Of a stretch of DNA of 64,000 nucleotides, positions 14,389-43,365 are shown in pieces. Location: positions 1-64,000 of the IMG/VR virus record IMGVR_UViG_3300029267_002600. One strand, 5' to 3'. The translations under genes and the position numbers were made by a program. This DNA comes from a virus. A model generated the notes under the pieces. The model ran no database searches and was not told where the DNA came from. It saw nothing but the letters and a program-made list of their open reading frames with translations. Position 1 is the stretch's first letter, and every line of letters begins with the position of its first letter.

Positions 14389-14519
14389 GATATACTGTCA
14401 TATTTGTAGCAATTATAATATTAATATTACCTTTAAATCAGGTTGTTCAAGCGGATGTAGTTGAGGAAGAAAGAACATTATTTATCCAAGCAGATCCAGA
14501 TATTGAATATGATTGTGTT

Positions 14520-17500
14520 TTGAACATAATAAATACAAGCAATGATCAATACACAAACGATAAGTTATTGATTGAACAATTTGAACAGGATACTGGCATA
14601 TCGGGTGGTTTTTCAGGATCGTTTTTGCCCCCTGCAAAGTTTCAACTAAATGATGCAAATACATCTGCATCCAATAATCATCTTGTTATGGCATCCATAG
14701 TAGAATTTAATCGTAAGAATCTACTTTCAGGGGCTTCAATATCTTGGTGGAGATGCCCCTACTTCTATAACTCATCCTTTTCTACAAGCAGGGATTGGAA
14801 TTTAAATATGTCAATCTATCATGTAGATCTTCCAAGAGTAGTTAATTTTTCATTTGATTATGCAGGTGGTGGAAATAATTATCCAGTAGTGCCAACAGCA
14901 TCATCACATCCATCACTTATATTCCAGAAATCATTTACAAATTGCGGATCTACACAGAATGATGAGCAATGGAACTTTACGAAAACAGCAATCATTCCAG
15001 CAAACGATACATTAGTTGATCCAGAATTGCCTTACAATGAAACTACAAATCCACATCTATATAATAATTCACTTCAGTATAGTTTTGCTTGGTTCAATGT
15101 TTCTGCCCCGATCTATCCGAATGAATCATACATGGTCATTTGGGATGTGCAAGATGTAGCAATGGGCGTTAATGATGCAGGAAGTATGTGGCTAACAGCA
15201 TCCGATATAGGAAACAATGCATACGGCAGAACATTATTCTGTTGGAATAACAGAACAGTATATGAACTGCCAATTGATTTAGATAGTTCTGTAATATTCC
15301 AGATAGGCATGGGGGCAGGAATTTCAGGAACAAAATTGGCTTATAACGATCCTGATTATATAGATCATACTTCCAGATTTGATCACACAAATTTTGGTTC
15401 AGGGGGATATAATTTTCAATCCGATTTCAGCAATTCCTTTGCAACTGATGGCTTTACAACAAGCGTTTCAACAAGTTCAGATGCATGGGTTAGACGAAAT
15501 GCAACATTAGAAAGAGCAGATTTTATACTTAATAGAACAGGATCGGTATCATCAAATTTTGGTGGGGCAGGAACAGATGGAACAAATAGTGGAGAATGGG
15601 GGGAATTAATATATGATAGGGGGTTAAGTAAATGGGATTCAGAAGGAGTTACTTTCAAATTTGATGTAAATATGTATGGTGGCATTGTTGATCTAACAAG
15701 CCCCGATAGAACAGTAGTAAGTTCAGAATTAAAAATAGCATTATACGATACTACATCAGAACAATGCAGATTTGCAATAGCAAGATACAAGGAGATTTCA
15801 GCAACAGGAGTAAATTTTAGCAATGAAATTAGATATTATGATAGCGGAAGCGTATATTCTACAATACCTTTGCCCGATTCATTTCCACAACATTTTCATC
15901 TTTCAGTATCAGTAGATATACCCAAAGGAGAAGTATATATCCACATATATCATCCAGATATTCCAAACAGAATATATTTTGCACATATGTATTCCAATAG
16001 ATTTGTGGGTTCAAGCACAATTAATGGCTTATTATTGGCAGGTTGTGTGTTAGAAACTGCATTAGCAGATACAAGAACAGATGGAGAAGTTGTAATTTCA
16101 GTAACCAAACTATCAGGAACTAATAGAAAAAACACATTACTTTGGACAATAAACAATCCATTTAACCGACAATCTTTATCTATTCATGATTTCTATTCAG
16201 GTTACGAAACATTAGTTCCAGATGTGAATTTTTCTTCTCCAGATACAAGGTGTATAGGATTTACTCATAGATTTCCAATTGGTTCAGCAGTAGATATTCA
16301 ACAAACCCAATCATTTTCTGTTGGAATAAACAGAAGGGTGTTTGCGACAGGATATTATAGGATGCTTTTCAATGACAGCACAGATTCTTATGCAGGATCG
16401 GACAGTTATTTCTATTTCCAAGTTGAAGGATGGGATGGCTTCAATTGGATTGCTTCAATCAATGAGAAATATTATGCTCTTGATGGAACATGGCATCAGG
16501 TCAGCACAGGTCATATAACTGGCACATTCTATCAAATAAGAATAACAGTAGGATTTAGATTCCCAAGCCCTGATGATACAAGTAGGGCAGATTTAAAACT
16601 TGGATTTTTTGATAATTTAAAAGTATTCAGTATTGATAATTCCAGTTTGAAGCATCATATATTCTATCAGGATGTGGATCAGCAGGATTGGAATGCCACA
16701 AATTACTACACATTCATGCTTCCATTTAGACAGGTTGAAGATCCTGATTTTACTCCATTCTGCAAGTTAGAGTTCAAAAATTCAGGTGGAACAACTGTTT
16801 ATACAAGTCTAACTTATCCAACAGATTTTCATGATGATTTCATAATAGCAGGTATTAAAACATCCAGCATTCCAAGTTCTTCAGCATTTATAAAAATCAC
16901 ATTGTATAATTTCGGTAATCAATCATATTTATTCTTGCACGATAGAAATAGTGATTTCGATCTAAATACGGATAGAATGTTCAGAAATAATTACTTTACA
17001 GATAATGATGCATCAGGAACAATGCTAAACGAAACATATTTTTCGCCTTACTATTCATTGAAAACCACAGAAGGCGAATGGCTTAATGCTGATTCATATT
17101 TCACTACAAGTTATTTCTATTTTGTAGTTGTCAGATTCATAGAATGGAACGATAATGATCCAGAAGTGATATTGATTCAATTTGATGCAGTTGATGTTGA
17201 AGATATTGATGTTTATAGGGTTAAATTAAGCGCATTTGGAGATGTCTATGATGATGAGGAATGGAAGATGTATCTGGATATACGGAATCGCCCATCATGG
17301 TTAGATAAGATTGTAGATTGGTTCTTAAATTCTCCATTAGGTCAGTTCTTTGGTATGATCGGCAAGTTTATTCATAAAGTTATAAGTTTTCTTGCGCCCT
17401 ATGTTCAATCATTACTTCATTTAATGCTGGAAGCATTTGTATTTATAGTATCAGTAGCCATATTTTTCTTTGCCATGTTTGTGATGTGGAATCTTGTTCA

Positions 17501-17612
17501 ATTTACTATATTAATGGCACAAAACAAGCCAGAAGAAGCCATAGATCAATTAACAGATTTCACAGGTAAGGTATCAGCATTAGTTGGTAAAGCAGTAAGC
17601 GTGGTAAGGTGA
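14520..17612 (+). CDS. very large glycoprotein candidate with C-terminal membrane helices; true start probably upstream
   Basis: 1030-aa ORF from TTG 14520. The in-frame upstream stretch 14358-14519 encodes a signal-peptide-like YTVIFVAIIILILPLNQVVQA/D but has no ATG/GTG/TTG. Many sequons. C-terminal TM helices. Confidence 0.65.
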   Translation: MNIINTSNDQYTNDKLLIEQFEQDTGISGGFSGSFLPPAKFQLNDANTSASNNHLVMASIVEFNRKNLLSGASISWWRCPYFYNSSFSTSRDWNLNMSIYHVDLPRVVNFSFDYAGGGNNYPVVPTASSHPSLIFQKSFTNCGSTQNDEQWNFTKTAIIPANDTLVDPELPYNETTNPHLYNNSLQYSFAWFNVSAPIYPNESYMVIWDVQDVAMGVNDAGSMWLTASDIGNNAYGRTLFCWNNRTVYELPIDLDSSVIFQIGMGAGISGTKLAYNDPDYIDHTSRFDHTNFGSGGYNFQSDFSNSFATDGFTTSVSTSSDAWVRRNATLERADFILNRTGSVSSNFGGAGTDGTNSGEWGELIYDRGLSKWDSEGVTFKFDVNMYGGIVDLTSPDRTVVSSELKIALYDTTSEQCRFAIARYKEISATGVNFSNEIRYYDSGSVYSTIPLPDSFPQHFHLSVSVDIPKGEVYIHIYHPDIPNRIYFAHMYSNRFVGSSTINGLLLAGCVLETALADTRTDGEVVISVTKLSGTNRKNTLLWTINNPFNRQSLSIHDFYSGYETLVPDVNFSSPDTRCIGFTHRFPIGSAVDIQQTQSFSVGINRRVFATGYYRMLFNDSTDSYAGSDSYFYFQVEGWDGFNWIASINEKYYALDGTWHQVSTGHITGTFYQIRITVGFRFPSPDDTSRADLKLGFFDNLKVFSIDNSSLKHHIFYQDVDQQDWNATNYYTFMLPFRQVEDPDFTPFCKLEFKNSGGTTVYTSLTYPTDFHDDFIIAGIKTSSIPSSSAFIKITLYNFGNQSYLFLHDRNSDFDLNTDRMFRNNYFTDNDASGTMLNETYFSPYYSLKTTEGEWLNADSYFTTSYFYFVVVRFIEWNDNDPEVILIQFDAVDVEDIDVYRVKLSAFGDVYDDEEWKMYLDIRNRPSWLDKIVDWFLNSPLGQFFGMIGKFIHKVISFLAPYVQSLLHLMLEAFVFIVSVAIFFFAMFVMWNLVQFTILMAQNKPEEAIDQLTDFTGKVSALVGKAVSVVR

Positions 17613-17619
17613 TAATTCT

Positions 17620-17973
17620 ATGGTGATTCAGGAACTTCCATTTTTTGCGATTCTTCTTCTAACGATACTCCCCATTACGATAGGAATAATTATATTCGCA
17701 AGGATTCTTGGAATCGCAAGGGGATTAATTACAAAATTCAAATCCAAAGAAGTATCTACATTGATGGATTTTGGAGAATTATATCTATTTGTAACCTTTT
17801 TGGTTATCATAATTGGTATTGTTTATTACATCATGGGTTCTCAACCATCTGGCTTTTCGATCTTCGATTTTTTAATAGTAGAGATGTTGCCAATAGCGTG
17901 GTATTCAATATTATTATATGGCATAATTGTTCAGTTAGTAATCATGCTTGGCAGGGGTGAGAATATTGGTTGA
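17620..17973 (+). CDS. integral membrane protein (3-4 TM)
   Basis: Hydrophobic throughout. Confidence 0.6.
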   Translation: MVIQELPFFAILLLTILPITIGIIIFARILGIARGLITKFKSKEVSTLMDFGELYLFVTFLVIIIGIVYYIMGSQPSGFSIFDFLIVEMLPIAWYSILLYGIIVQLVIMLGRGENIG

Positions 17974-17983
17974 TCTTGATATA

Positions 17984-18058
17984 ATGATTGGATTATTAGC
18001 CACATTATTTGGGCTTATGATTATCAACTTTCTTGATCGCTTATTCTGGAGAAAATAG
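17984..18058 (+). CDS. tiny single-TM peptide (24 aa), tentative
   Basis: MIGLLATLFGLMIINFLDRLFWRK. Below the track threshold. Confidence 0.3.
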   Translation: MIGLLATLFGLMIINFLDRLFWRK

Positions 18059-18215
18059 TAGAAGTATTTAAATCTTATGCGTTAGGTTATATATAAGTGA
18101 ATGAAATTTATGAGTAACTAATGCTTACTACAAAATACAGCGACAACGGAAACATCTGCCCCGAAGATGTAAAAACATACTGGGGAAGAACTGGAAATTT
18201 GGGGGTGTATTAGTA

Positions 18216-18326
18216 ATGACCGATTTTTCGGAAATTACGACACTTGTTATTTCACTTCTGCCTGTTTTGGTGATATTGATCGTTTTCAAGTGGATCATCA
18301 AGACATTCAGCGAGATGGAGTTCTAA
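18216..18326 (+). CDS. tiny single-TM peptide (36 aa), tentative
   Basis: MTDFSEITTLVISLLPVLVILIVFKWIIKTFSEMEF, preceded by GGGGGTG. Below the track threshold. Confidence 0.35.
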   Translation: MTDFSEITTLVISLLPVLVILIVFKWIIKTFSEMEF

Positions 18327-18358
18327 TAGCCCAACATACAATCTAATAGGTGATGTAA

Positions 18359-18937
18359 ATGAAGAAATTCATTTCATTCCTTTTGATAGGATTGATGTTG
18401 TCGGCGTTAGCCACACCACTTGCTTGTGCATCAAGTGAAACAGGATCAGGTTCATCCAGAACTGTAACATTCCATGATTCATTTCAGGATTGTAACACTT
18501 CTGTAATCGTTCCAACCGTTCTCAACAATGAAACAAACAATTCCTTTGCCTTTGTGGTAATGGATGAATCAGGTAATTGGGGGAACAACTACACATTTAA
18601 CATCACGATATACGACAACAATGTTACTTGGTGGAACGGAACGGTTGATATTGATGGAGTTCCCAATGATAACACTACTGGATACATCAACTATTCCGCA
18701 AACACATTTGATGTAGTGGATAATGCCAATATCACAATCACTATGCAATGGCAGAACTTCACAGCAACGAATGATGATGTTTGGTATGGAGAAGTTGATA
18801 TTGTTGATGAAGCCACATATACAATCCGAGTTGTAACAACAGAATTGATGGTATCTATTCTGGCAATGGGATTAGTGATACTCTTTATCGGCAAGATCTT
18901 GGGATCTATGAAGATGGATGAAAAGAAAAAGAAGTAA
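18359..18937 (+). CDS. small sequon-rich, C-terminally anchored surface protein (candidate abundant virion/envelope protein)
   Basis: SD GGTGAT. Signal peptide. At least 11 N-x-S/T sequons by my count in about 150 aa. C-terminal TM followed by KKKK. A strong hairpin follows. Confidence 0.7.
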   Translation: MKKFISFLLIGLMLSALATPLACASSETGSGSSRTVTFHDSFQDCNTSVIVPTVLNNETNNSFAFVVMDESGNWGNNYTFNITIYDNNVTWWNGTVDIDGVPNDNTTGYINYSANTFDVVDNANITITMQWQNFTATNDDVWYGEVDIVDEATYTIRVVTTELMVSILAMGLVILFIGKILGSMKMDEKKKK

Positions 18938-18953
18938 TTTCATACCTGAAAAT

Positions 18954-18985
18954 AAAGGGGAGATGAACTTCTCCCCTTTCCTTTT
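18954..18985 (+). terminator. intrinsic-terminator-like hairpin
   Basis: AAAGGGGAG (18954-18962) pairs with CTCCCCTTT (18971-18979), followed by CCTTTTACATTTCTT. Confidence 0.55.
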
Positions 18986-19007
18986 ACATTTCTTGATCAG
19001 AAATGGG

Positions 19008-19028
19008 CAAAGTATAAGAATATATAAC
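19008..19028 (+). promoter_or_regulatory. putative promoter of the leader-family array (CAAAGTATAA + TATATAA)
   Basis: Same 10-mer as at 7521. It lies between the terminator hairpin and the first family gene (ATG 19047). Confidence 0.3.
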
Positions 19029-19046
19029 ACATAAGGAAGATCGCAA

Positions 19047-19649
19047 ATGTCTTGGAAAGGCGAATCAAGAAGGCATTCGTTAGCCAGAAAGGGCGTTAAG
19101 ACTAATGTTGATAATCGAAGGCAATTTGATAATAGTAAATTAATAGGAGAAGGAGTTTATAATAAAAGAACATATTTGAATATTTTTACTAATCATATTA
19201 AGAATTTGAGGGTTGAAGATGCAATTATGTTAAGAGATATTATGGAAAGCAGATTAATAAACGCATTATTTGATCATCAATATAGAAAAACGAATAACTA
19301 TCCATCACGATCAGAACAAAAACGGATTCATCAAAAAATACAACTAATGGATATGGATGAATTGGTAGAAAATCTTCAAAAGTATCAAAATTATGGAACT
19401 TCTAATATCTACAAAGTAAAAGATCATGCGGAATATCTTATAGATATAGAAAAACAATCAACAGATATTGTGCATTTAGGAAATACAAAGAAATTGAGAT
19501 GGGGAGATACATTAGTTTATATTCAGGGATCGCCAGATAATACGGCATGGGTAATTCATAAAGGGCTGATTGGAAAACATAACTATGGGGCATATGGTGG
19601 AATAGATAAAGATCCAAATTTAGAAAGAATGTTAATTAGGGATGATTGA
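19047..19649 (+). CDS. WKGESRRHSLARKG-leader family protein 1/25
   Basis: MSWKGESRRHSLARKGVKTNVDNRRQFDNSKLIGEG (degenerate second module). Unique body. Confidence 0.85.
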   Translation: MSWKGESRRHSLARKGVKTNVDNRRQFDNSKLIGEGVYNKRTYLNIFTNHIKNLRVEDAIMLRDIMESRLINALFDHQYRKTNNYPSRSEQKRIHQKIQLMDMDELVENLQKYQNYGTSNIYKVKDHAEYLIDIEKQSTDIVHLGNTKKLRWGDTLVYIQGSPDNTAWVIHKGLIGKHNYGAYGGIDKDPNLERMLIRDD

Positions 19650-19650
19650 G

Positions 19651-20649
19651 ATGGCAGGAAAAGGAAGCGGTTGGAAGAACGAATCAAGAAGGCATTCGTT
19701 GGCAAGGAAGGGCGTAAAGACTAACATAGATCAGGGAAAACGATTTGATGTTTCTAATTTTGTCGCAAGGGGAGAAGGATTATCCAAAAAACTTGATGAT
19801 CTTGATGGTTTAGTATATGAGAGATTCATAATTATAGAAGAAGATCTGAAAGGGTTTATTCGATACAAGGATGAATGGGTTGAATATATACAAACAGAAT
19901 TATCCAAGATGGGCTATGATGAGGGCGATATTGATGATATGAATATTGAAGGATGGACAATCAGGTTACTTCTTGATTATATTGATGATAGATTAGATGT
20001 TCAAACAGGGCAGGAAGTAGATGATCTATCTGTTTGGATAGAAGATTATACTGGAGAGAAGATAGATACAGATGATATTACAGAATTAATATACAATAGC
20101 GTTATACTATTAGATCCAGAATTTAATAGCATTGTAAGGGTAAGAGATGGCTTGGAAGTAGATGTTGAAAGAGAATTGAGCAAGTTAGGATTTGATGAAG
20201 GTCAAATAGAAGATATATATATTGAAGATTGGGCAAGTCAAAGATTATTGGATGAGATTGAAGATGAGATCGGTTGGCAAAGATTATTTTCAAGAACGGA
20301 CACATTAGAAAGTTGGATTAGAGATCGCATAAGGATTAGGGATGAATCACAATTCAAGAGTTCGGGCAAGAGAAAGGACATAGATTTGCCCCAATCCAAC
20401 TTATATTTGAAAGGATTCGGTATGGATAGGAACGGCAATAAGGTAATCAAATTAACCTATCCGAATGGCAGGGGGTTCAGCATACAAACGAATATGAATC
20501 TTCCGATCATACACAGCATGAAACTTGGCAATAAGGATTTGCAGAATTTAACGAAATCAGAATTGAAAGCAATAGAAAGCGAAGTGATAGATTACATTGA
20601 GGGATATGGAAGTAAAGGTCAGCAAGATAGATTGAGGAAATTTAGGTGA
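19651..20649 (+). CDS. leader family protein 2/25, acidic body with internal duplication
   Basis: MAGKGSGWKNESRRHSLARKGVKTNIDQGKRFDVSNFVARG. Duplicated ELSKMGYDEGDIDDMNIEGW / ELSKLGFDEGQIEDIYIEDW. Confidence 0.85.
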   Translation: MAGKGSGWKNESRRHSLARKGVKTNIDQGKRFDVSNFVARGEGLSKKLDDLDGLVYERFIIIEEDLKGFIRYKDEWVEYIQTELSKMGYDEGDIDDMNIEGWTIRLLLDYIDDRLDVQTGQEVDDLSVWIEDYTGEKIDTDDITELIYNSVILLDPEFNSIVRVRDGLEVDVERELSKLGFDEGQIEDIYIEDWASQRLLDEIEDEIGWQRLFSRTDTLESWIRDRIRIRDESQFKSSGKRKDIDLPQSNLYLKGFGMDRNGNKVIKLTYPNGRGFSIQTNMNLPIIHSMKLGNKDLQNLTKSELKAIESEVIDYIEGYGSKGQQDRLRKFR

Positions 20650-20654
20650 TTTAA

Positions 20655-21143
20655 ATGGCATGGAAAGGCGAGAGCAGAAGGCACAGTTTGGCACGAAAGG
20701 GCGTAAAGACTAACATAGATGGTGGCAGAAGGTTTGATGTATCTAACTTTGTTGCAAGGGGGAAGTTAGATTTAAAGGAGTTTCCACCACAGAAGTATGT
20801 GGGAGATGGCAAACTTCCCAATATGTATTGGGTAAGTATCTCCAATCATTACTATTATTTTGATGAAGATTCAAATTCATTAGAAAGCATTACAGAAAGA
20901 GATCCAGATTTCAAGATTGAAGGTGGAACTGTTGCGGTATTTTCAACATTCAGGGAAGCACTTGAATTTGCCGATAAAAACAGTTGGCAGGGAGATGATA
21001 TTACCATAGAAGATAGATTAACAGGTCAAATTTGGGAACAATTTAAGTTTGTTCATATGATAGAAAAGGAAGAATACGAAACCCATGATGATACAAGATG
21101 GACAAAAGAACATATGAAAGAATTAGGAGTTGAGTTTGAATGA
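20655..21143 (+). CDS. leader family protein 3/25
   Basis: MAWKGESRRHSLARKGVKTNIDGGRRFDVSNFVARG. 95 nt are identical to the next copy. Confidence 0.85.
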   Translation: MAWKGESRRHSLARKGVKTNIDGGRRFDVSNFVARGKLDLKEFPPQKYVGDGKLPNMYWVSISNHYYYFDEDSNSLESITERDPDFKIEGGTVAVFSTFREALEFADKNSWQGDDITIEDRLTGQIWEQFKFVHMIEKEEYETHDDTRWTKEHMKELGVEFE

Positions 21144-21778
21144 GTTGGAAAGGCGAGAGCAGAAGGCACAGTTTGGCACGAAAGGGCGTAAAGACTAACA
21201 TAGATGGTGGCAGAAGGTTTGATGTATCTAACTTTGTTGCCAAAGGCGAAGATAGACCAAAAGTAAAATTCATGGGGGAAGGCAGAAGTATGCATGGCTA
21301 TATTGATAGATCGTGGGATGAATACCTATTTGAAGAAGAAGATGGCACGAATATAGAAGTAGTGGTATTTTCTGAACCCGATTGGGATATGTTAAGAGAA
21401 GTTGGAGAAGAAGAAGAAATCAAAGAACAAGATTGGGATGAATTTGTTCTTGATAGAGAAGAAGAATTTTATCAAGAAGGCAATGGAGAAGTTCATGTCA
21501 TATGGGCAGGGGCTTTGGATTTCACAGGAACAGAAAATGAATTTGCAGGTAGGTATCCAGAATTGAACGAGTATTTGAATCTTGGAGATTTATCTGGAAC
21601 ATGGGTTGTAGAAGATATGCCACATGAATTAAAATATCATGCAGAAAAAATGCCACAAGGTCATTATAAAGTAGTTGCAGAAGATAAATCAGGTAGATAT
21701 AGGATAGGATATACAAGCGATCCAGAAGCAATGATTAGAGAAACAGCGAAGGGTTATGACATTAGGAAGGTTAGGTGA
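21140..21778 (+). CDS. leader family protein 4/25, acidic body
   Basis: MSWKGESRRHSLARKGVKTNIDGGRRFDVSNFVAKG. ATGA overlap. Confidence 0.85.
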   Translation: MSWKGESRRHSLARKGVKTNIDGGRRFDVSNFVAKGEDRPKVKFMGEGRSMHGYIDRSWDEYLFEEEDGTNIEVVVFSEPDWDMLREVGEEEEIKEQDWDEFVLDREEEFYQEGNGEVHVIWAGALDFTGTENEFAGRYPELNEYLNLGDLSGTWVVEDMPHELKYHAEKMPQGHYKVVAEDKSGRYRIGYTSDPEAMIRETAKGYDIRKVR

Positions 21779-21783
21779 TTAAA

Positions 21784-22884
21784 ATGGCAGGAAAAGGAAG
21801 CGGTTGGCATGGAGAATCCCGAAGGCATTCTCTTGCAAGGAAAGGCGTAAAGACAACTCCACAAGGGGCAAGAATGAAAACAGTTCCGAAAGGAAGGATT
21901 ATAGATGCCTATGGCATTAAGTTTGATGCACATGGGCAACCAATGGTTGCCGAAGGCATATTGGGAGATCTTTGGGATAAGGCGAAATCCACGATAACAC
22001 AATCCAAATTAACACAGAAGATAAAGGATGTTGGTGGCACGATCAAGCAGAAAGTAACTGGCGTAGGTCAAAAAATAAAAGAAACTGGCGCAAAGATAAA
22101 AGAGAAGGTAACACCATCAAAAGATAAGGTAAAAACATCAACGGTGAAAGCGGATCATCCAATGAGAAGGGGGATGGAAATTCCCAAAGAAACACCGAAA
22201 GGTAAGCATCCAGCAAGGAGAGAGAACGAAGCATTAGCCAAGCAGATGGATAAGGTTGAAAGACAAAAGATAAGTTCAACAGAAGAAGAACTTGAACAAG
22301 CATCCCATTTCGGCAGGAAACCGAGCAAGGAAGAAGTAGATATAGATAACAAGGGCAGGGTTGGGGCATTAAAATCCAAGATTGCTTCGGAAGAAAAGAA
22401 AGTTCCGAGAGAGCAACTTACCGATATGCCAGAAGAAGTCTTTGAAAGCCCTGATGCCGATTCATTGATAGCCATTGCAGAAAATAGTGAAAAACTGATA
22501 GATTACAAGAATGAATTACAGTATGACATCAACATGATAAAGACAGAAGCGAAGCGATTGAAAAAGCGGTTTGAAACTGATGAACGGAAAGAGATTGCGG
22601 ATTTGAATGCTGACAGGGATAAAGCAAGGGCAAATTTCAAGAAGTTCAAAGATAATATAAAAATGAGTGGCATGGATGAAAGCAAGGCGAAGCACAAAAC
22701 CCAATCTAAATTGAATGAGTTAAAGCAAGAGTTTGAGCAAAGGAAGGTAGAGATTGGGGCATTAAAAATGCGAAATAAGGTTACGATAGATTTCTTAAAT
22801 GATCTTACTGACGATCTAACAAGGAATGTAGTAAAGATGGATAAGAAAGTCAAGCAAATGACAGCATCAGGGAAGGTGAAGTAA
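21784..22884 (+). CDS. leader family protein 5/25, Lys-rich coiled-coil body
   Basis: MAGKGSGWHGESRRHSLARKGVKTT. Ends ...MTASGKVK. Confidence 0.85.
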   Translation: MAGKGSGWHGESRRHSLARKGVKTTPQGARMKTVPKGRIIDAYGIKFDAHGQPMVAEGILGDLWDKAKSTITQSKLTQKIKDVGGTIKQKVTGVGQKIKETGAKIKEKVTPSKDKVKTSTVKADHPMRRGMEIPKETPKGKHPARRENEALAKQMDKVERQKISSTEEELEQASHFGRKPSKEEVDIDNKGRVGALKSKIASEEKKVPREQLTDMPEEVFESPDADSLIAIAENSEKLIDYKNELQYDINMIKTEAKRLKKRFETDERKEIADLNADRDKARANFKKFKDNIKMSGMDESKAKHKTQSKLNELKQEFEQRKVEIGALKMRNKVTIDFLNDLTDDLTRNVVKMDKKVKQMTASGKVK

Positions 22885-22885
22885 T

Positions 22886-23443
22886 ATGGCATGGAAAGGC
22901 GAGAGCAGACGGCACAGTTTGGCAAGGAAAGGCGTAAGGACAGCAAAGGGTTGCCCCCAGAAAAAGATGGTGGCAAGGGGCAATGAAGATGATGATCGTA
23001 GGGAATACATAAATAGGCAGGTTGCAGAATTTCAAAGGGATTTCTGCCCATATGGTTATCTTGATATAGAACAAGCATTGCTACATTTAGAAGCTTATGG
23101 TCATGGTATAGGATACTTGTTTGAAGCACTTGAAGAATTTGTTGAAAGCACAGGTACAGATAGAAATGATGTAGATATTACATGGATAGCATACGATAGC
23201 ATTCTTCAAGAAATTAGGCAGAAAATAGATTCTGAAATTGGCTTTGACATTATGAATGATGCTGATTATTACGCCTATGGAAATTACATGGCAACATCAT
23301 ACGATTGGAGTTCAGAAGATCAGGAAGCATTGAAATCAGCAATTAAGAATGCAGATATGGAATCAAAACACAACTTGCTTTCGGATGATGATGTAGTAAC
23401 TTGGCTTTCAGAAGTTGATATTGATATTAAGGAGTTGAGTTAA
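22886..23443 (+). CDS. leader family protein 6/25
   Basis: MAWKGESRRHSLARKGVRTAKG. Confidence 0.85.
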   Translation: MAWKGESRRHSLARKGVRTAKGCPQKKMVARGNEDDDRREYINRQVAEFQRDFCPYGYLDIEQALLHLEAYGHGIGYLFEALEEFVESTGTDRNDVDITWIAYDSILQEIRQKIDSEIGFDIMNDADYYAYGNYMATSYDWSSEDQEALKSAIKNADMESKHNLLSDDDVVTWLSEVDIDIKELS

Positions 23444-23868
23444 TGGCATGGAAAGGCGAGAGCAGAAGGCATAGTCTTGCCAGAAAGGGCGTAAAGACAG
23501 CAAAGCCAAGAATGAGGGCATCAGGGAAGAAAGAATTTGGAAATGCATTATCGCCAGAAGGTAAGGCATTATTAAAATCAGAAGGGTTTTCAGAAGATTA
23601 CATAATATTCATTTGGAAATCAGAAATGGATTCCCCACCAAATGTTCCACATTACATGACAATTGATTTTGTATTAGATTCTGAAATGAGAAAAGAATAC
23701 AATGAATTGAGAGAAGATGAAGATGGTATTACTGGAGAATGGTTAAGCCATAATCTTTGGACATTAATAGATAGGGGTTTAGTGGTTGATGTGTATGATG
23801 GTATTAATAGCCCCGAAGAATTGAAAGATAAATATGATGATATAGTATTAATTTATGGAAGGGGATAA
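23443..23868 (+). CDS. leader family protein 7/25
   Basis: MAWKGESRRHSLARKGVKTAKPRMRASGKK. TAATG overlap. Confidence 0.85.
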   Translation: MAWKGESRRHSLARKGVKTAKPRMRASGKKEFGNALSPEGKALLKSEGFSEDYIIFIWKSEMDSPPNVPHYMTIDFVLDSEMRKEYNELREDEDGITGEWLSHNLWTLIDRGLVVDVYDGINSPEELKDKYDDIVLIYGRG

Positions 23869-23869
23869 C

Positions 23870-24622
23870 ATGAGTTGGCATAGAGAATCAAGAAGGCACA
23901 GTTTGGCAAGGAAGGGCATTAAAACGGCGAAAGGGCATTTCATGGATACAGATGAAGGCAAAAGAGAAATGAGAGAACCATTACACACAGATCCATTTGC
24001 CACAGGAGATTCACTTCGGGATTATCTTGATTCTCCAGCAGGAGAAGAATATCTTGAACTGCATTGGGAAAGTTTATATGAAGTTCCATTTAATTCATTT
24101 GAAGAAGGCATTCCATATTGGATAGATCATTATGAGAATCTATTGTTAGAAGAAGAAGTATATAGCCGAGAATATACTGATGAATTAATTGAACATGAAC
24201 TTGGCTATCATGATGGCTATGAGATTGGAGAATACAGAACCTTTGATGGCAAGGATTATTATTATGTTGGAAGCGTTTCGGGTGGAAGTGGAGAATTAGA
24301 GTTACAAGCAGATAACGGCGATCTTGTTTATGATGGCATTGGTGATAGTTTCTTCCGCATTTGGAAGCCATTCCCCGAAACATACATTTCATTGGAAGAA
24401 GATAGTTATGAATTAATTCATAACCATAAGACAGTTGCAGAAACCGAAAAAATATCTGAAATGAACAATCCAGATAAAGCATTACAAGATTTAAAAAATA
24501 GGGCATTAAAGAATGGTTGGAAACTTGAACCTATAATATGGGATGATGCAGAAAATAGATTTGAAAAACAGAAATCAATTCCAAGTTATAAGCCAGATAT
24601 ATATGAAGATATGTTTAATTAG
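23870..24622 (+). CDS. leader family protein 8/25, acidic body
   Basis: MSWHRESRRHSLARKGIKTAKG. Track ORF 23855..24622. Confidence 0.85.
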   Translation: MSWHRESRRHSLARKGIKTAKGHFMDTDEGKREMREPLHTDPFATGDSLRDYLDSPAGEEYLELHWESLYEVPFNSFEEGIPYWIDHYENLLLEEEVYSREYTDELIEHELGYHDGYEIGEYRTFDGKDYYYVGSVSGGSGELELQADNGDLVYDGIGDSFFRIWKPFPETYISLEEDSYELIHNHKTVAETEKISEMNNPDKALQDLKNRALKNGWKLEPIIWDDAENRFEKQKSIPSYKPDIYEDMFN

Positions 24623-24632
24623 GAGATAAAAC

Positions 24633-25085
24633 ATGAGTTGGTGGAAACAAAGCGAAAGGCATAGTCTTGCCAGAAAGGGCATCAAGACAGCACAACAGGG
24701 TAAGCCCAAGATCACTAAAGGTATTGCGAATGAGCAAGTGATCAAGCACAAGTTATCCAACAACATTCACAAGAATATTACGGCGTTAGATCGTAAATTG
24801 CGTAAGGTAGCCAATCTTGAAAGCCAGAAAGACATTCAAAGGAATCTTGAAGATGCCATGAAGTTGTATGATTCATTAGGCGAAAAGATAAAAAATCACA
24901 AGCAACGGTATGGCAATATGCCAGATTGGATACAGCATGATTGGGTTCATAATGAAACATTCGACAAGAACGGCAAGATAAAGAAGCAGATGCAGAAGAT
25001 GAGGGAATTAGATCCAAAGAACTTGAAGAAAGAGCAGAACAAGATGTGGAATTTGATAGCGTTAAAGACGGAAAGGAGAAGGTGA
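24633..25085 (+). CDS. leader family protein 9/25 (most divergent leader)
   Basis: MSWWKQSERHSLARKGIKTAQQGKPK. Basic body. Confidence 0.8.
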   Translation: MSWWKQSERHSLARKGIKTAQQGKPKITKGIANEQVIKHKLSNNIHKNITALDRKLRKVANLESQKDIQRNLEDAMKLYDSLGEKIKNHKQRYGNMPDWIQHDWVHNETFDKNGKIKKQMQKMRELDPKNLKKEQNKMWNLIALKTERRR

Positions 25086-25089
25086 TAAT

Positions 25090-25299
25090 ATGCCATATAA
25101 GAAAGCAAGATATACACATAAAAGATATACAAATCCAAGAAATATCGTGAAAGGAACATTCAGAACAGTTCCATTATCGCATACGAGATCAAAGAGAAAG
25201 ATAAAAAATGCAAAAGCGATAGTAGGGAAATCCAAGAAAACAGGTAAGAACATCATTCAATCGGTATTAATACCGAAGAAAAATAGGAAGGTGAAGTAG
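25090..25299 (+). CDS. very basic small protein (not a family member)
   Basis: 69 aa, Lys/Arg-rich. It ends KKNRKVK, as does the mini-ORF at 37966-38073. Confidence 0.6.
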   Translation: MPYKKARYTHKRYTNPRNIVKGTFRTVPLSHTRSKRKIKNAKAIVGKSKKTGKNIIQSVLIPKKNRKVK

Positions 25300-25300
25300 G

Positions 25301-26113
25301 ATGGCATGGAAGAACGAATCTCGAAGGCATTCGTTGGCAAGGAAAGGCATAAGAACAAACATAGATGATGGCAGAAGGTTTGATGTATCCAACTTTGTTG
25401 CGAAGGGCAAGGGCAGATATACATATCATGGAAGGAAATTAGAATTAGGGGAATTACTTCAGGATGGATACAAATCAGGTAATGATTATTTTCTAATTAT
25501 CCAGTTACAAGATGGTTTCATAATCGGTGGATACATAGATCTTGATGAATACTGGAAAGATGCTGAATATATTAATGAAATCATAGTAGAACCCATGATA
25601 TTCACAGTAGAAGAATTTGATGAAAGACCAATGGAACAGTTATCAAGTGGTTGGGATTTAAGAACAAAGGAAGGAAAAGAGTATTTAAATAGGCACATAA
25701 AGAAGATAGAAGATTTACTGAAAGATTCAAGAGATTTCGAAACAAAAGCCAGATATGAGATAATCAATAAAACCGATTATGCGAAGGATGTTGCAATTGC
25801 TTACAATCAGAACTATGACAATGTGAAGCACACGAAATGGTTTATGAATGCGGTTGAAACAGAATTAGAATCTGATTTCAAATCCGAACAAAGATGGAAG
25901 GAACTGAAGCAAATGGAGAAGAAAAAGGCATCAGGAAAACATCTTTCAGTAAGAAAATTCAATGGAGAAGAATATTACTATACAGGAATAATGGATTCAG
26001 AATCAAAAGAAAGATTAGAAGCGACAGCAAAAGTAATGGGTAGAGGAAAACCATTCAAAATAGTAAGATTAAAGGATGGTTATCATCTTTATGCAAAAAA
26101 GAAGGTGATGTAG
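25301..26113 (+). CDS. leader family protein 10/25
   Basis: MAWKNESRRHSLARKGIRTNIDDGRRFDVSNFVAKG. Internal KKKASG. Confidence 0.85.
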   Translation: MAWKNESRRHSLARKGIRTNIDDGRRFDVSNFVAKGKGRYTYHGRKLELGELLQDGYKSGNDYFLIIQLQDGFIIGGYIDLDEYWKDAEYINEIIVEPMIFTVEEFDERPMEQLSSGWDLRTKEGKEYLNRHIKKIEDLLKDSRDFETKARYEIINKTDYAKDVAIAYNQNYDNVKHTKWFMNAVETELESDFKSEQRWKELKQMEKKKASGKHLSVRKFNGEEYYYTGIMDSESKERLEATAKVMGRGKPFKIVRLKDGYHLYAKKKVM

Positions 26114-26893
26114 ATGGGTTGGAAAGGCGAATCCCGAAGGCATTCGTTGGCAAGGAAAGGCATAAGAACAAACATAGATGATGGCAGAAGGTTTGATGTA
26201 AGTTCTTTTGTTGCAAAGGGCAAGAAGTTGCCAGAAGTGGATTATGGCACAGATGTATGGGAGTTCAGGGTGAATCCAGATGGTTCTATGCGTTTAAGAT
26301 TGGGCAATATGACAACAGCAGGATGGTATTGGACAGGGGATGAAACCGATCTTGGAACATTCTTGGTTAGAATTGTTAATTTCGGAGAGATGGATGAATT
26401 TAAGGAAGCAATGGCAGAAGCAGGAATATCCTTTGATATGTTGAAGCCATTTTTATTGAAGAACATTGATGAACCTGATGGAAATGGTATGTATTCTATT
26501 ACAGGGGATAATGTTAGATGGAAATTTGGAGAAGCGTATGATATTGATGTAGATGAAGAAGTCGAATATTTAACAAGTATGTATGAATTATCTGATGAAG
26601 ATAAGCAGGAGATAAAAGATGAGCATTATTGGAATCTTACAAGAGTTAGTATAGATGATTTTGAGAAAACAAAAGATTATGAGGAAATCAAAGGAGATCT
26701 GGAAGAAGCATTTAAATTATCAGATGATTTTGATGATTTTTCAAGCAATATAAAAGAATTAAAAGAAAATGTATTCTGGCAAATGATAGAATACGATCAA
26801 GAAGTAGAATTTGAAGATTTTGAGAGGGCATTCGATATTTGGAAGGGGAAAAAGAAGAAAGAAGGCAGAACCGTTAAGAAGATCAAGGGGTGA
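26114..26893 (+). CDS. leader family protein 11/25, acidic body
   Basis: MGWKGESRRHSLARKGIRTNIDDGRRFDVSSFVAKG. Confidence 0.85.
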   Translation: MGWKGESRRHSLARKGIRTNIDDGRRFDVSSFVAKGKKLPEVDYGTDVWEFRVNPDGSMRLRLGNMTTAGWYWTGDETDLGTFLVRIVNFGEMDEFKEAMAEAGISFDMLKPFLLKNIDEPDGNGMYSITGDNVRWKFGEAYDIDVDEEVEYLTSMYELSDEDKQEIKDEHYWNLTRVSIDDFEKTKDYEEIKGDLEEAFKLSDDFDDFSSNIKELKENVFWQMIEYDQEVEFEDFERAFDIWKGKKKKEGRTVKKIKG

Positions 26894-26897
26894 TAAA

Positions 26898-27968
26898 ATG
26901 AGTAAAGGTTGGAAGAACGAATCTCGAAGGCATAGTCTTGCCAGAAAAGGAGTTAAAACCAATGTAGATGAGAGCAGAAGATTTGATGTCAGCACATTTG
27001 TTGCGAAGGGCATGGTTCATGGCTATGATATAGATGAGATTTACAATGGCTTTATTGAAGCAATGCTTTGGGCTACGCAAGATCCAGATCATAAAGATGA
27101 AGTATTTTTAGAAAATAATTATAGTATCTATGATGTTGATAAAGACACAGCAAGAGCAATCAAATTCCTTATTGAAGATTTCATGAATGAAAACCATGAA
27201 TTATTTGAAGAAATAGAAATAAACGAAGGAATAAGAATATCAGAAGAAATGATAGGTAATGATCTATTCTTGGACACACAAGGTCATGGGGTAGGATTTT
27301 GGAGTAGAGATTATGGGCTTAATGGCAAACTATTAAGCAAAGAAGCAAAAAAGTTCTTTGATGATAGTATGTATGCCTATGCTGGAGATGATGGCAAGAT
27401 TTACTTTGAAGGAGTAACTAAATTGAAGGCATCAGGAAGAAGCAAATTCACGATTGTTAGAGATCTAATGAGAAAGGAAGGCGTAGATCCAGAATATGCT
27501 TCTCCAAATTTCGTTAAGGATTTTGCAGATAATAGAGGAATTAAACTAACATCAGAACAAGTAGTTGATATTTCCAATAGATATACAAGTTCAGGAGAAT
27601 ACAAACAGAAAAAATGGGAAGTTGTAATGATTTCACCACATGGCAGAACTGCAATAGAAGAAGTAACACTTGGCAGGAAATCAAACAAATTTGATGTCAT
27701 TCAATCATTAAAAAGACAGGGAATAAAGGGAGAAATTATTCAGATAAAGGAATTGAAGGCATCAGGAGTATCGGCAGATGTTAGCAGGATAAAAAGAAAT
27801 CTAATAAACAAAGCGAAAAAGAGAGGCATCTATGAAAATTTCGGACAAGTTGAAATTAACCGATTGAGAGATAAATATTCTGATTACAGATATGGTTCAG
27901 AAGAACAAAGAAAACAATGGGCAAATATAGAAGCATTAGACGAATGGGCAATGAATTATACAGGGTGA
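26898..27968 (+). CDS. leader family protein 12/25, three-part body
   Basis: MSKGWKNESRRHSLARKGVKTNVDESRRFDVSTFVAKG. GNDLFLDTQGHGVGFWSRD motif. Two internal LKASG motifs. Confidence 0.85.
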   Translation: MSKGWKNESRRHSLARKGVKTNVDESRRFDVSTFVAKGMVHGYDIDEIYNGFIEAMLWATQDPDHKDEVFLENNYSIYDVDKDTARAIKFLIEDFMNENHELFEEIEINEGIRISEEMIGNDLFLDTQGHGVGFWSRDYGLNGKLLSKEAKKFFDDSMYAYAGDDGKIYFEGVTKLKASGRSKFTIVRDLMRKEGVDPEYASPNFVKDFADNRGIKLTSEQVVDISNRYTSSGEYKQKKWEVVMISPHGRTAIEEVTLGRKSNKFDVIQSLKRQGIKGEIIQIKELKASGVSADVSRIKRNLINKAKKRGIYENFGQVEINRLRDKYSDYRYGSEEQRKQWANIEALDEWAMNYTG

Positions 27969-27973
27969 TTAAC

Positions 27974-28444
27974 ATGGCAATAAAAGGAAAAGGTTGGAAG
28001 AACGAATCAAGAAGGCATAGTCTTGCGAGAAAGGGCATTAGAACAACGGATAATTCCATGTCGGGAGTAAGGGTTGATGAAAGTTCAGGATTATGGTTTG
28101 AATCGCAAGGAGTAGTATCCGAGATGGTTTCATTGGTTCAATTAATAGGATTTGATGATCTTATCAAAGAAAAGAAAGCAAGTGGCATTTCAAGAGATCA
28201 ATATGAAGCAGATGGAGAGAAGATTATAGTATTTCCATCAGAAGAAAGCAAGAAAACAGTTAAATGGCTATTGAACGAATACATCAATGGAGATCGCAAA
28301 AGAAGGAAGCAGGTAAAAAGGATGCTAAACATTGCCATCAAGGAAATAGATAGAAGATTGGGCAAGGAGAACATCATAGACATTAGAGTTGATCTTCACA
28401 AGAGCAGAAAGATGTTTAGAGAACTTGAACAGGAGTTGAGTTAA
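27974..28444 (+). CDS. leader family protein 13/25
   Basis: MAIKGKGWKNESRRHSLARKGIRTTDNS. Internal KKASG. Confidence 0.85.
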   Translation: MAIKGKGWKNESRRHSLARKGIRTTDNSMSGVRVDESSGLWFESQGVVSEMVSLVQLIGFDDLIKEKKASGISRDQYEADGEKIIVFPSEESKKTVKWLLNEYINGDRKRRKQVKRMLNIAIKEIDRRLGKENIIDIRVDLHKSRKMFRELEQELS

Positions 28445-29280
28445 TGGCTTGGAAAGGCGATAGCAGAAGGCATTCTTTGGCAAGGAAGGGCATCAAGACC
28501 AACATAGATCAGGGCAGAAGGTTTGATGTTTCTACATTTGTCGCAAGGGGTAATGATATTGGTAGATATTTCGATAGCGAACCTGAAAATGATGAACTTT
28601 TGGAATATTGGGATATAGCAATATGGTTTGAAGATTTGCCGAGAGATCCAAAAGAACAAGAAAAAGAAATAAGGGAATGGGTTGAATTACTTGAAAAGAG
28701 AACAAATATGCATTTCCAAGATTTAGTAGATAAAGCATATAAGGTAGATCCAAACGATTCAAAATATTCTATGCTTTTCACACCAATTGATGAACTTTTC
28801 AAGAAGATAGGAATGAGATTGCTAAATTATGGTCATGATGTTTATGAATCAGATACAAGAATGATTGTTTGGAGAAAAGGAACAATACCGAGATGGTATG
28901 ATACAGATTTTGATGAAATAGCAAATGTAATTAGCATTCCATTAATGAACAAATCTCAAATAGAAGGGAACATTGATTATCTTGATGAAAAATATGAAGC
29001 AGATGTTTTTGAAGGATACAATATGGAATTGGCAGGGGTAGATGAAGCAGGTAAAAGAAGGGAACAACTTGTTAGATGGCTTTCATTACCTGATAAAAAG
29101 AAAAAGATATTCAAGGAGTTACATGAAACAGATGAAAATCTATTCCATTCACAATTATTGGGTTCGACATATGAGCATTTGCATCCATCAGCAGAAAAAC
29201 TTGCGGAAGCATACAATCTTCCAATGGATGAAGCCAAAGAGATATTTGCAGAATATGAATCTGGATGGTGGTGGAAGTAA
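28444..29280 (+). CDS. leader family protein 14/25
   Basis: MAWKGDSRRHSLARKGIKTNIDQGRRFDVSTFVARG. TAATG overlap. Confidence 0.85.
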   Translation: MAWKGDSRRHSLARKGIKTNIDQGRRFDVSTFVARGNDIGRYFDSEPENDELLEYWDIAIWFEDLPRDPKEQEKEIREWVELLEKRTNMHFQDLVDKAYKVDPNDSKYSMLFTPIDELFKKIGMRLLNYGHDVYESDTRMIVWRKGTIPRWYDTDFDEIANVISIPLMNKSQIEGNIDYLDEKYEADVFEGYNMELAGVDEAGKRREQLVRWLSLPDKKKKIFKELHETDENLFHSQLLGSTYEHLHPSAEKLAEAYNLPMDEAKEIFAEYESGWWWK

Positions 29281-34218: not shown

Positions 34219-34222
34219 TAAT

Positions 34223-37966: not shown

Positions 37967-38073
37967 TGGCAAGAAAAGGCATTCCCAAAAGGGATGGATC
38001 GGGTAAAGGAAAGGGTTTGAATAAAGGAAGGGGTGGATGCAAACCACCGAAGAAAAATAGGAAGGTGAAGTAG
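37966..38073 (+). CDS. 35-aa basic Gly-rich mini-protein (DUF5320-like?), below the track threshold
   Basis: MARKGIPKRDGSGKGKGLNKGRGGCKPPKKNRKVK. TAATG overlap upstream. Its last 27 nt plus the next gene start repeat 25273-25342. Confidence 0.45.
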   Translation: MARKGIPKRDGSGKGKGLNKGRGGCKPPKKNRKVK

Positions 38074-38074
38074 G

Positions 38075-38599: not shown

Positions 38600-38601
38600 T
38601 C

Positions 38602-42974: not shown

Positions 42975-43365
42975 AAGGCATAGTCTTGCCAGAAAAGGAA
43001 TAAAAACAGGTGGTAAAAGCATGGGCATAAAGATAAAGCCATCAAAGGATACAATAGAGGGCATTCCATTAAGTAAAAATATTGATGGGCATAAATTCAC
43101 ATTAAGAAAGAGCGGTCAATATCAGAAAGATTTCAAGATTAAGATCTCAATTACAGAAGAAGAATACACTAAATGGAAGGAATTACTTGAAAGAAAAGGA
43201 AATCCAAAAGATATGGCAAATCAGATAGCATTCTTCGACATGATAGATTTTGAATTATCGGCAATAAGGGGCGAGGGAGAGATAGATGAAAAGGAATATG
43301 AGATCAATGAAAGAATCAAGAAGGAAATGGAAATGATAAGGCACAAGTTAAATTTGGATGAGTAA
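42952..43365 (+). CDS. leader family protein 19/25
   Basis: TTG start 4 nt after GGTGAT gives (M)GWKGESRRHSLARKGIKTGGKS. Track ORF 42940..43365. Overlaps the end of the upstream surface-protein gene. Confidence 0.8.
   Translation: MGWKGESRRHSLARKGIKTGGKSMGIKIKPSKDTIEGIPLSKNIDGHKFTLRKSGQYQKDFKIKISITEEEYTKWKELLERKGNPKDMANQIAFFDMIDFELSAIRGEGEIDEKEYEINERIKKEMEMIRHKLNLDE

Follow-up and report, generated by a model that had tools for sequence, protein, structure and literature searches.

The 64,000-nt window analysed here (positions 1 to 64,000 of the IMG/VR virus record IMGVR_UViG_3300029267_002600) belongs to a larger virus- or plasmid-like element, probably circular, in which 25 genes encode otherwise dissimilar proteins that all begin with one short basic peptide, hereafter the tag. 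The window aligns at 100% identity with the 74,347-bp ENA contig k141_2134957, whose two ends share an overlap of 141 bp. From this overlap, and from the window crossing the junction, we infer a genome of ~74.2 kb, circular or terminally redundant and apparently complete. The element comes from sediments, sampled in JGI 3300017989 and 3300018080 and in ENA ERZ27256778. All of its genes lie on one strand, and no tRNA genes were found in the element. A six-frame scan of the window with the motif x-R-H-S-L-A-x-x-G returns exactly 25 tag copies, the number of repeats given by the initial annotation of this DNA; all are on the plus strand, each at the start of an open reading frame (ORF). No tag copy was found in the ~10 kb of the genome outside the window. 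The tag genes are grouped in three arrays (Table 1) and make up 22.6% of the genome.

Aligned, the 25 N-termini give the consensus M-[AGS]-W-K-G-E-S-R-R-H-S-L-A-R-K-G-[VI]-K-T (~19 residues, basic), within which we take W-K-G-E-S-R-R-H-S-L-A-R-K-G-[IV]-K-T as a core of 17 codons; ten residues (W3, S7, R9, H10, S11, L12, A13, R14, G16, and T19) are invariant in 25/25 copies. Nine of the 25 copies have a long leader, in which the core is followed by the extension N-[IV]-D-x-G-R-R-F-D-V-S-x-F-V-A-[KR]-G, whereas in the remaining copies the spacer is shorter and variable, frequently with hydrophobic-x-A-[RKS]-G as its end. The leaders have an isoelectric point (pI) of 10.4-12 and a net charge of about +4 to +8. 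The word leader, introduced in the initial annotation, is kept here for the 25 window genes; it is too narrow for the tag as such, which is C-terminal, internal or tandem in distant relatives.

Neighbouring tag genes in arrays 1 and 3 overlap or sit ≤10 nt apart, with exceptions at the flanks of a 69-aa ORF and at a 213-nt gap (43972-44186), and no small ORFs besides this one are interleaved in the arrays. The position of array 1, between a 192-aa and a 454-aa backbone gene, is conserved in three related elements (L013, L024, and L090). Genes for membrane-anchored paralogues, of 454 and 386 aa, follow arrays 1 and 3, respectively; the L090 homologue of the 454-aa protein matches the 386-aa protein at about 25% identity, which suggests an old segmental duplication of an array with its downstream gene. 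Direct DNA repeats of 250-290 nt period in two further genes reflect Ig-like domains repeated in tandem, and have no relation to the repeated leaders.

Beyond the leader, the tag proteins have little in common. No pair among the 25 leader-trimmed proteins (cargos) is similar at BLASTP E ≤ 1e-3, and the cargos range in length from 116 to 340 aa and in pI from 4.2 to 10.1 (below 6.5 in 19/25, the remaining six being basic). Among the 25 tag genes, Pfam recognises DUF3140, a nucleotidyltransferase domain, DUF6321, and nothing else, with an NTP_transf_2 match at 8.5e-6 on one window cargo, which we assume to be that of gene 44186..44698; PADLOC gives weak AbiEii-type matches only. Homologues of the cargo of gene 20655 (P0153-P0156) begin directly with the cargo domain, without a leader. 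The homologue of the product of gene 23443, P0157, bears a long leader ending in FVARG that meets the cargo at the same junction as the short RMRASG leader of the window protein, and leaders of differing length share the hydrophobic-x-A-[RKS]-G ending at one cargo junction. An AlphaFold2 model of the 20655 protein, built from 32 alignment rows, has a per-residue confidence (pLDDT) below 50 at residues 1-52, rising to ~80-86 over residues 58-162, where the cargo forms a compact alpha/beta fold. The model and these comparisons point to a modular appendage, probably disordered, on independent domains.

Tandem co-directional arrays are typical of duplication, and would suit common paralogues, all derived from a single gene by 25 duplications, of which only the N-terminus is still recognisable. 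We nonetheless hold such paralogy to be very improbable, given that no cargo pair is detectably related, that the cargos differ so widely in length and pI, that one cargo family exists tagless and others have both tagged and untagged members, that the tag can be C-terminal, and that orthologous cargos carry differing leader types. Whole-gene duplication was likewise rejected, the cargos being mutually unrelated.

A second short motif, K-[AS]-S-G, occurs six times in the tag-gene proteins versus 0.3 expected, a count that 0/500 shuffles reach, and once in the other 69 proteins. Its sites lie in the products of genes 19651-20649 (residue ~239), 25301-26113 (209), 26898-27968 (two sites), 27974-28444, and 38075-38599 (119). 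These joints coincide with cargo-module boundaries: the L013 ortholog of the 26898-27968 protein stops exactly at the first joint, and the relatives P0048 and P0064 have different modules fused at joints of this type. The motif may be a linker or a protease site. Its enrichment at module boundaries, along with the common ending of leaders of different length at one junction, is what speaks for taking the tag as a processing or regulatory handle, that is, a protease site, a degron, or a chaperone- or ribosome-binding segment, by which cargo activity would be timed or limited, with F-V-A-[KR]-G and K-A-S-G as putative cleavage sites in cargos of polyprotein type. We think this quite improbable: the sole protease-like family match in the window is a weak SprT-like one, no maturation or processing protease was found there, and the K-A-S-G joints could be mere linkers.

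Table 1. Arrays, tag genes, shared tracts and neighbouring features of the window
Feature	Position	Strand	Length (aa)	Core	Remarks
Array 1	19047..30245	+			15 tag genes back to back, broken only by 69-aa basic ORF 25090-25299
Array 2	38075..39752	+			3 tag genes, between PKD/beta-helix protein gene and LamG/DUF2341 protein gene
Array 3	42952..47145	+			7 tag genes
Tag gene	19047..19649	+	200	19053-19103	Long extension degenerate
Tag gene	19651..20649	+	332	19672-19722	MAGKGSG prefix; long leader; K-S-S-G joint, in the longer ORF
Tag gene	20655..21143	+	162	20661-20711	Long leader; tagless cargo homologues
Tag gene	21140..21778	+	212	21146-21196	Long leader
Tag gene	21784..22884	+	366	21805-21855	MAGKGSG prefix; short leader; basic cargo, conserved in L013, L024, L090
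Tag gene	22886..23443	+	185	22892-22942	Short leader, but long leader in L013 ortholog
Tag gene	23443..23868	+	141	23449-23499	Short leader ending RMRASG
Tag gene	23870..24622	+	250	23876-23926	
Tag gene	24633..25085	+	150	24639-24689	Divergent leader MSWWKQSERHSLARKG; cargo and odd leader together in L013, L018, L024, L090
Tag gene	25301..26113	+	270	25307-25357	Mosaic leader
Tag gene	26114..26893	+	259	26120-26170	Long leader
Tag gene	26898..27968	+	356	26910-26960	Long leader; three cargo modules, two K-A-S-G joints between
Tag gene	27974..28444	+	156	27995-28045	Start at 27944 per gene callers
Tag gene	28444..29280	+	278	28450-28500	Long leader
Tag gene	29280..30245	+	321	29286-29336	
Tag gene	38075..38599	+	174	38081-38131	5' parent of 25301 mosaic
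Tag gene	38602..39144	+	180	38608-38658	
Tag gene	39132..39752	+	206	39147-39197	GTG start
Tag gene	42952..43365	+	137	42958-43008	TTG start (gene callers: 42940)
Tag gene	43367..43972	+	201	43373-43423	Cargo homologue in distant IMG/VR contig L011/L012
Tag gene	44186..44698	+	170	44192-44242	TTG start; weak NTP_transf_2 match (precomputed Pfam table)
Tag gene	44698..45150	+	150	44704-44754	Basic cargo
Tag gene	45150..45731	+	193	45156-45206	Long-leader variant
Tag gene	45728..46309	+	193	45734-45784	
Tag gene	46309..47145	+	278	46315-46365	
95-nt tract	20661..20755	+			Identical to 21146-21240; identity stops abruptly at leader/cargo junction
95-nt tract partner	21146..21240	+			Identical to 20661-20755
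66-nt tract	25322..25387	+			Identical to 26135-26200
66-nt tract partner	26135..26200	+			Identical to 25322-25387
61-nt tract	25272..25332	+			Identical to 38046-38106; 29 nt upstream of ATG (ribosome-binding site GGAAGGTGA), 10 codons and 2 nt
61-nt tract partner	38046..38106	+			Identical to 25272-25332
Mosaic breakpoint interval	25321..25333	+			Within invariant R-R-H-S codons
69-aa ORF	25090..25299		69		pI 11.9; sole untagged gene within array 1
Membrane-anchored protein gene	30245..31609		454		Follows array 1
Membrane-anchored protein gene	47434..48594		386		Follows array 3
Direct DNA repeats	36065..37820				250-290 nt period; in 1247-aa PKD/beta-helix gene
Direct DNA repeats	41766..42272				250-290 nt period; in gene of 665-aa protein
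~35-kb block	11965..48594				Contains the arrays
PD-(D/E)XK nuclease gene	58991..60154				RecB/Cas4-like; matches phage exonuclease PHROG

Selection on the peptide and exchange of its DNA

A codon table of the 25 copies reproduces every codon statement of the initial annotation, including the switching between TCN and AGY codons at both serines: the first serine is TCA, AGC or TCC (also TCT and AGT), the second TCG, AGT or TCT (also TCA), leucine is TTA, TTG or CTT, and arginine AGA, CGA or AGG. Over the 17-codon core of the window copies, the pooled synonymous difference (pS) is 0.64, and real amino-acid differences in the 11-residue centre occupy 5/275 cells. The ratio of non-synonymous to synonymous substitution (dN/dS), an estimate that the initial annotation had proposed and that we ran on the core, is 0.11 by the Nei-Gojobori method (NG86), a value that overstates dN since TCN-to-AGY serine switches are counted via non-synonymous steps. 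Family-wide, in 262 distinct copies from 70 loci, the conserved residues use all six serine, six arginine, six leucine, four glycine, and four alanine codons, and because all synonymous codons occur at conserved residues we conclude, as was originally proposed, that selection acts on the peptide and not on a DNA or RNA motif. Judged from these codons, it is purifying selection on the peptide that keeps the tag near-invariant while synonymous sites drift.

The opposite proposal, that the conserved unit is a DNA- or RNA-level element (a recombination site, an RNA structure or a translation initiation signal) with peptide conservation as its by-product, could draw on identical tracts between copies, one of which reaches into the upstream ribosome-binding site, and on a codon choice in the window that is not fully random. 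GGC at both glycine positions, AGT, and CTT are over-used compared with the genome, and the invariant arginine before histidine (core codon 7) is AGG in 24/25 window copies and 16/16 L013 copies, whereas the genome prefers AGA; the test for this bias assumes independent copies, an assumption that does not hold. Such bias could reflect shared ancestry, homogenisation or nucleotide constraint. We read it as a signature of homogenisation within the element, and the uniformity of AGG looks like lineage-specific homogenisation rather than nucleotide constraint. The DNA- or RNA-level proposal is hardly tenable, being already largely refuted by the 262-copy codon survey; in addition, no Rfam family matches the window, the folding energies of five leader regions are no different from those of shuffles (z -1.0 to +0.85), the reading frame is kept in every copy, and amino-acid identity is far above nucleotide identity. 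A function at the RNA level was rejected on the survey, Rfam, and the shuffle folding. A test for an integron was also negative: there are no non-coding attC sites between the cassettes, the repeat being coding, in-frame, and peptide-selected, and no integrase family was found in the window.

Against this synonymous divergence stand long identical tracts, two of which had been noted initially, at 95 and about 66 nt, and prove exact. Over all 300 copy pairs, the longest in-register identical run has a median of 13 nt. In the 95-nt pair, 30/31 degenerate same-residue codons are identical versus a background of 0.558 per codon (P = 3.6e-7, ~1e-4 corrected for 300 pairs); taken by itself, the 66-nt pair falls short of significance under the same correction. 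A 61-nt tract, newly found here, links copies 12.8 kb apart. Its upstream 29 nt are shared between the region ahead of gene 25301, where they contain the last 28 nt of the 69-aa ORF, and the intergenic region before gene 38075. Copy 25301 is a two-parent mosaic: on its 5' side 26/26 informative sites match copy 38075, and on its 3' side 30/31 match copy 26114 (Fisher p = 2e-15), many of these sites stemming from the unrelated flank of each parent, as a crossover within the shared core predicts. Gene conversion and recent duplication had both been offered to explain the tracts. The mosaic bears out recombination or conversion; the tracts are not remnants of whole-gene duplication because the cargos behind identical leaders are unrelated. 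The 25 homologous stretches of 50-100 nt thus act as crossover points. The PD-(D/E)XK nuclease (Table 1) could belong to recombination machinery that the element encodes and that works on the leader homologies; a single-strand annealing protein was not recognised in the element.

Related elements, carriers and host

Four related elements (L090, L013, L024/L035, and L018/L037/L038) share with the window a backbone of 807-aa, 1030-aa, 117-aa, and 192-aa genes, the array, and 454-aa, 870-aa, and PKD genes, in this order; the L090 backbone has 66-76% amino-acid identity to that of the window. At the array-1 position, the window has 15 tag genes, L090 has 7, L013 at least 16, and L024 at least 10. 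The cargos in the relatives' arrays are only partly shared, their order is different, and cargo modules are recombined. The gain, loss, and shuffling of cassettes at leader boundaries that the initial annotation had envisaged are therefore borne out between diverged relatives with a collinear backbone, but not among near-identical population contigs, which are present in several JGI, ENA, and Logan samples.

Each element has its own version of the leader. L-A-R-K-G, present in 25/25 window copies, is replaced by L-S-R-K-G in 14/16 L013 copies (a fifteenth has M-S-R-K-G), synonymous signatures differ too (GGC versus GGA, AGT versus TCA), and L090 leaders have the signature W-H-D-D-S. Synonymous-codon identity is 0.53 within elements versus 0.39 between them (permutation p ≤ 1e-4), and in 6/8 pairs of orthologous cargos the true ortholog's leader comes in only at 8th-23rd place out of 25. 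A leader is therefore more like the other copies in its genome than like the leader on an orthologous cargo, which indicates that leaders evolve in concert within an element. An exception is the divergent "WW" leader of gene 24633 (M-S-W-W-K-Q-S-E-R-H-S-L-A-R-K-G), which stays with its cargo in all four relatives and appears to escape homogenisation. This cargo, basic and helical in L013, L018, L024, and L090 alike, is the only one present in every examined relative of the window, and may have a core role. L090 additionally has degenerate tags, R-H-S-D-A-R-K-G and R-E-H-G-L-A-R-K-G (11178-11624, 12103-12384), which may be decaying copies or have altered specificity.

A profile of the 25 leaders retrieves 854 cluster representatives at E ≤ 1e-3, and 90 at E ≤ 1e-10, from 1.84 billion proteins. 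Among the top 150 profile matches, the tag is N-terminal in about 95%, and the motif starts at residue 3 in 81 or after a short M-K-K-Q-G-S-G-type prefix. Pattern-limited scans, whose counts are lower bounds, place the tag at 65 metagenome loci (about 36 datasets), on one IMG/VR contig, and on 3 contigs in a set of 185,579 species-representative genomes. In nearly all of 70 loci the tag is present more than once, in co-directional copies that number up to 17 within 16 kb. Another group of elements, with almost nothing else in common with the window, carries the variant M-T-K-G-W-K-x-E-S-x-R-H-S-L-A-R-K-G-I-K-T-G-R-K; in this group the motif is also found at ORF ends, mid-ORF or in tandem, and there are cargo families with both tagged and untagged members. 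Two or three tandem copies of a ~35-residue module, G-W-H-G-E-S-R-R-H-A-A-A-A-K-G-V-E-T-V-I-E-P-G-K-R-A-D-M-S-K-Y-V, occur in P0030 (654 aa), P0007, P0011, and P0001; such tandem copies in distant proteins imply that the module behaves as an autonomous unit able to act multiply. Cargo domains recognised among 150 representatives are DUF5661, nucleotidyltransferase, RQC, GNAT, and JAB, kinds that are found in conflict systems.

No model or match in Pfam, NCBIfam, PHROGs, PADLOC or PDB sequences covers the leader, and tblastn of the tag gives no match in 50,697 GenBank phage records or 72,556 plasmids (PLSDB). The exact degenerate DNA pattern for E-S-R-R-H-S-L-A-R-K-G is absent from viral contigs, among which the peptide pattern finds the one IMG/VR contig. 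A word-index homology search with the 40-aa leader alone gave no match either, which reflects a limitation of the index and not absence: the collection does contain the same protein, and the exhaustive profile search does retrieve the tag. We found no description of the tag in the literature searched, by motif string or for archaeal-virus families. Neither the tag nor the scale of its use nor the elements that carry it have been described, while the underlying principle is already known from T4 internal proteins, from the cassettes of polymorphic toxins, and from the loading peptides of encapsulins.

Recognisable functions in the element are a DNA N6/N4 methyltransferase, a radical-SAM protein, a protein matching a PHROG annotated as topoisomerase, DUF5131, a PD-(D/E)XK nuclease, Lar, SprT-like, and helicase- and DnaA-like ATPases. 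Small membrane proteins are encoded at 5800-11936 and 17620-18937. The arrays sit in a ~35-kb block whose genes encode large proteins with a signal peptide or a membrane anchor and with domains of the PKD, beta-helix, and LamG/DUF2341 types, the place where one would expect a virion or envelope module. Homologues of the radical-SAM and topoisomerase-like proteins occur both in tailed phages of bacteria and in Methanomassiliicoccales viruses, and host assignment from backbone genes failed, the homologues falling on bacterial and archaeal sides alike. The tag has three matches in GTDB genome bins, one bacterial (WOR-3) and two archaeal. We weakly favour an archaeal over a bacterial host because two of the three tag-bearing bins are archaeal and related loci contain inteins and an XPB helicase.

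Candidate roles of the tag

We interpret the tag, with moderate confidence, as a recombining, peptide-selected, portable docking signal that would give unrelated cargos one common fate, possibly loading into a particle. Its portability is supported by the unrelated cargos, the tagless homologues, and its N-terminal, C-terminal, internal or tandem placement; the conflict-type cargo domains and the location of the arrays among envelope-like genes fit packaging. The tag would be a short linear motif that folds on binding and docks to one conserved partner, and a single partner would confer a common fate on all cargos. Because no element-encoded gene was found to co-occur with the tag in all elements, and because the tag is near-invariant across elements otherwise unlike, this partner is more likely to come from the host, or to be nucleic acid, a membrane, or a structural protein diverged beyond recognition. 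More speculatively, the cargos could be loaded into a transmitting particle or vesicle, or co-transferred with the element DNA, and could reach the next host as early effectors, like the internal proteins of T4 with their capsid-targeting sequence (CTS). The leader DNA meanwhile provides dispersed homology, giving rise to identical tracts, the mosaic leader, concerted leaders, and cassette turnover.

The nearest precedent is that of T4, in which unrelated internal anti-restriction proteins packaged with the DNA share only the capsid-targeting sequence (PMC3012670). Proteins with this sequence are IPI-III, Alt, and the products of the polymorphic IP loci of T-even phages. In T4 as here, a short conserved N-terminal peptide is the sole common part of diverse proteins of one virus. 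The two peptides have no sequence similarity, however, and of the capsid, the scaffold, and the prohead protease by which the T4 peptide is cleaved off, none was detected by Pfam and PHROGs in the window and its relatives; T4 has a handful of such genes versus 25 here, and our tag is longer (19-36 aa) and in relatives also C-terminal or internal. A short peptide likewise docks cargo enzymes to the shell of encapsulins (PMC11664910, PMC8229669). The peptides of encapsulin and microcompartment cargos resemble the tag in being short, disordered (by prediction in our case), terminal, movable between termini, and attached to unrelated cargos. They differ from it in that they are hydrophobic or amphipathic where the tag is basic, and serve one to few cargos versus 25 per genome; no shell gene (HK97-fold encapsulin, BMC-H/P) was found in our Pfam/PHROGs scans.

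Polymorphic toxin loci (CdiA-CT, Rhs, MafB) are comparable in that a conserved region precedes a variable C-terminal domain, alternative cassettes form arrays, and recombination in the junction exchanges the variable part. Here, by contrast, there is no large delivery domain and no immunity gene after each cassette, neither a toxin domain in the window cargos nor a secretion family was detected, and the cassettes are complete genes with their own start codon and ribosome-binding site. The RxLR-dEER motif of oomycetes and PEXEL of Plasmodium are, like the tag, short N-terminal motifs on hundreds of unrelated, fast-evolving effectors in expanded families; unlike it, they follow a classical signal peptide and serve eukaryotic trafficking, whereas the tag has no signal peptide and belongs to a prokaryotic mobile element.

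Export by a non-classical signal, perhaps a mimic or derivative of the twin-arginine translocation (Tat) signal, would send the cargos through some translocon to the surface, the medium, or a neighbouring or host cell. The Tat consensus is S/T-R-R-x-F-L-K, and the E-S-R-R-H-S-L-A of the tag resembles it, with an S-R-R-x-x-L core near the N-terminus; the tag is at the extreme N-terminus in most proteins, and the arrays alternate with genes whose adhesin-like products are secreted or anchored in the membrane. Yet the h-region (12-20 hydrophobic residues) is lacking, since S-R-R-H-S-L-A is followed by the polar and charged R-K-G-V-K-T-N-I-D-G-G-R-R-F-D; no A-x-A or other signal-peptidase-type site is evident, the scans of the window and related loci revealed no family of secretion-system proteins, and the motif is also C-terminal, internal, and tandem. 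We therefore regard export as unlikely.

A nucleic-acid-binding role can be assigned about the same low probability. The tag would be an arginine-rich arm that tethers the cargo to element DNA or RNA without a protein partner, its W, H, and G residues shaping the contact. The strong positive charge on mostly acidic cargos, the disorder predicted for the tag alone, the failure to find a partner gene, and an extreme conservation across unrelated elements that suits an invariant ligand are all in line with such an arm; generic binding by charge would, however, not require 10 invariant residues, and neither Pfam nor the PDB sequences revealed any resemblance of the tag to a known nucleic-acid-binding motif. 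This role also overlaps with the docking interpretation, as DNA tethering could be the route into a particle.

Several observations weigh against a docking tag, and against packaging in particular. Capsid, portal, terminase, prohead protease, encapsulin, and conjugation families were all absent by Pfam and PHROGs from the window and 13 other tag loci, so that the existence of a particle is itself unproven; the absence of a recognisable capsid gene does not fit packaging, although structural proteins too diverged to recognise could have escaped detection. A search for a partner gene common to all tag loci yielded none, only cargo families and lineage-specific backbone genes. Cargo functions are predictions at most, Foldseek gives the predicted 20655 cargo no match in PDB at E ≤ 1e-3, and the disorder of its leader is a prediction from a shallow alignment. 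Copies placed internally or in tandem are not easily reconciled with a targeting sequence that is cleaved from the N-terminus. As to recombination, the near-identical population contigs have identical gene orders and no cassette polymorphism, homogenisation is weak in L024 (within-element codon identity just 0.37), and the within-element signal could be raised by codon usage that differs from element to element. Simple paralogy and a unit that works as DNA or RNA are, for their part, effectively excluded.

A bolder version of the docking interpretation, possible but tentative, makes the tag the hallmark of a hitherto unrecognised effector-delivery system of uncultivated, probably archaeal, mobile elements: a single universal peptide for loading or docking would commit dozens of interchangeable effectors per genome to a transmissible particle, a vesicle or a conserved host machine, and the DNA of the tag would double as a recombination joint at which elements trade effector cassettes.

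Should the tag prove to be a signal for loading or docking, it would mark the effector repertoire of an uncultivated group of elements, at least 854 protein clusters that are almost all unannotated, and its 19 residues would offer an experimental handle for pull-down of the partner and for loading of foreign proteins. We recommend that the tag receive a family model, lest these genes stay annotated as unrelated hypothetical proteins. In T-even phages, internal-protein genes lie in variable loci, and the logic of two selection levels is known from these loci as well as from polymorphic toxins. The element described here is an unusually clean natural case of it, in which function fixes the peptide and DNA homology drives conversion, mosaics, and cassette exchange.

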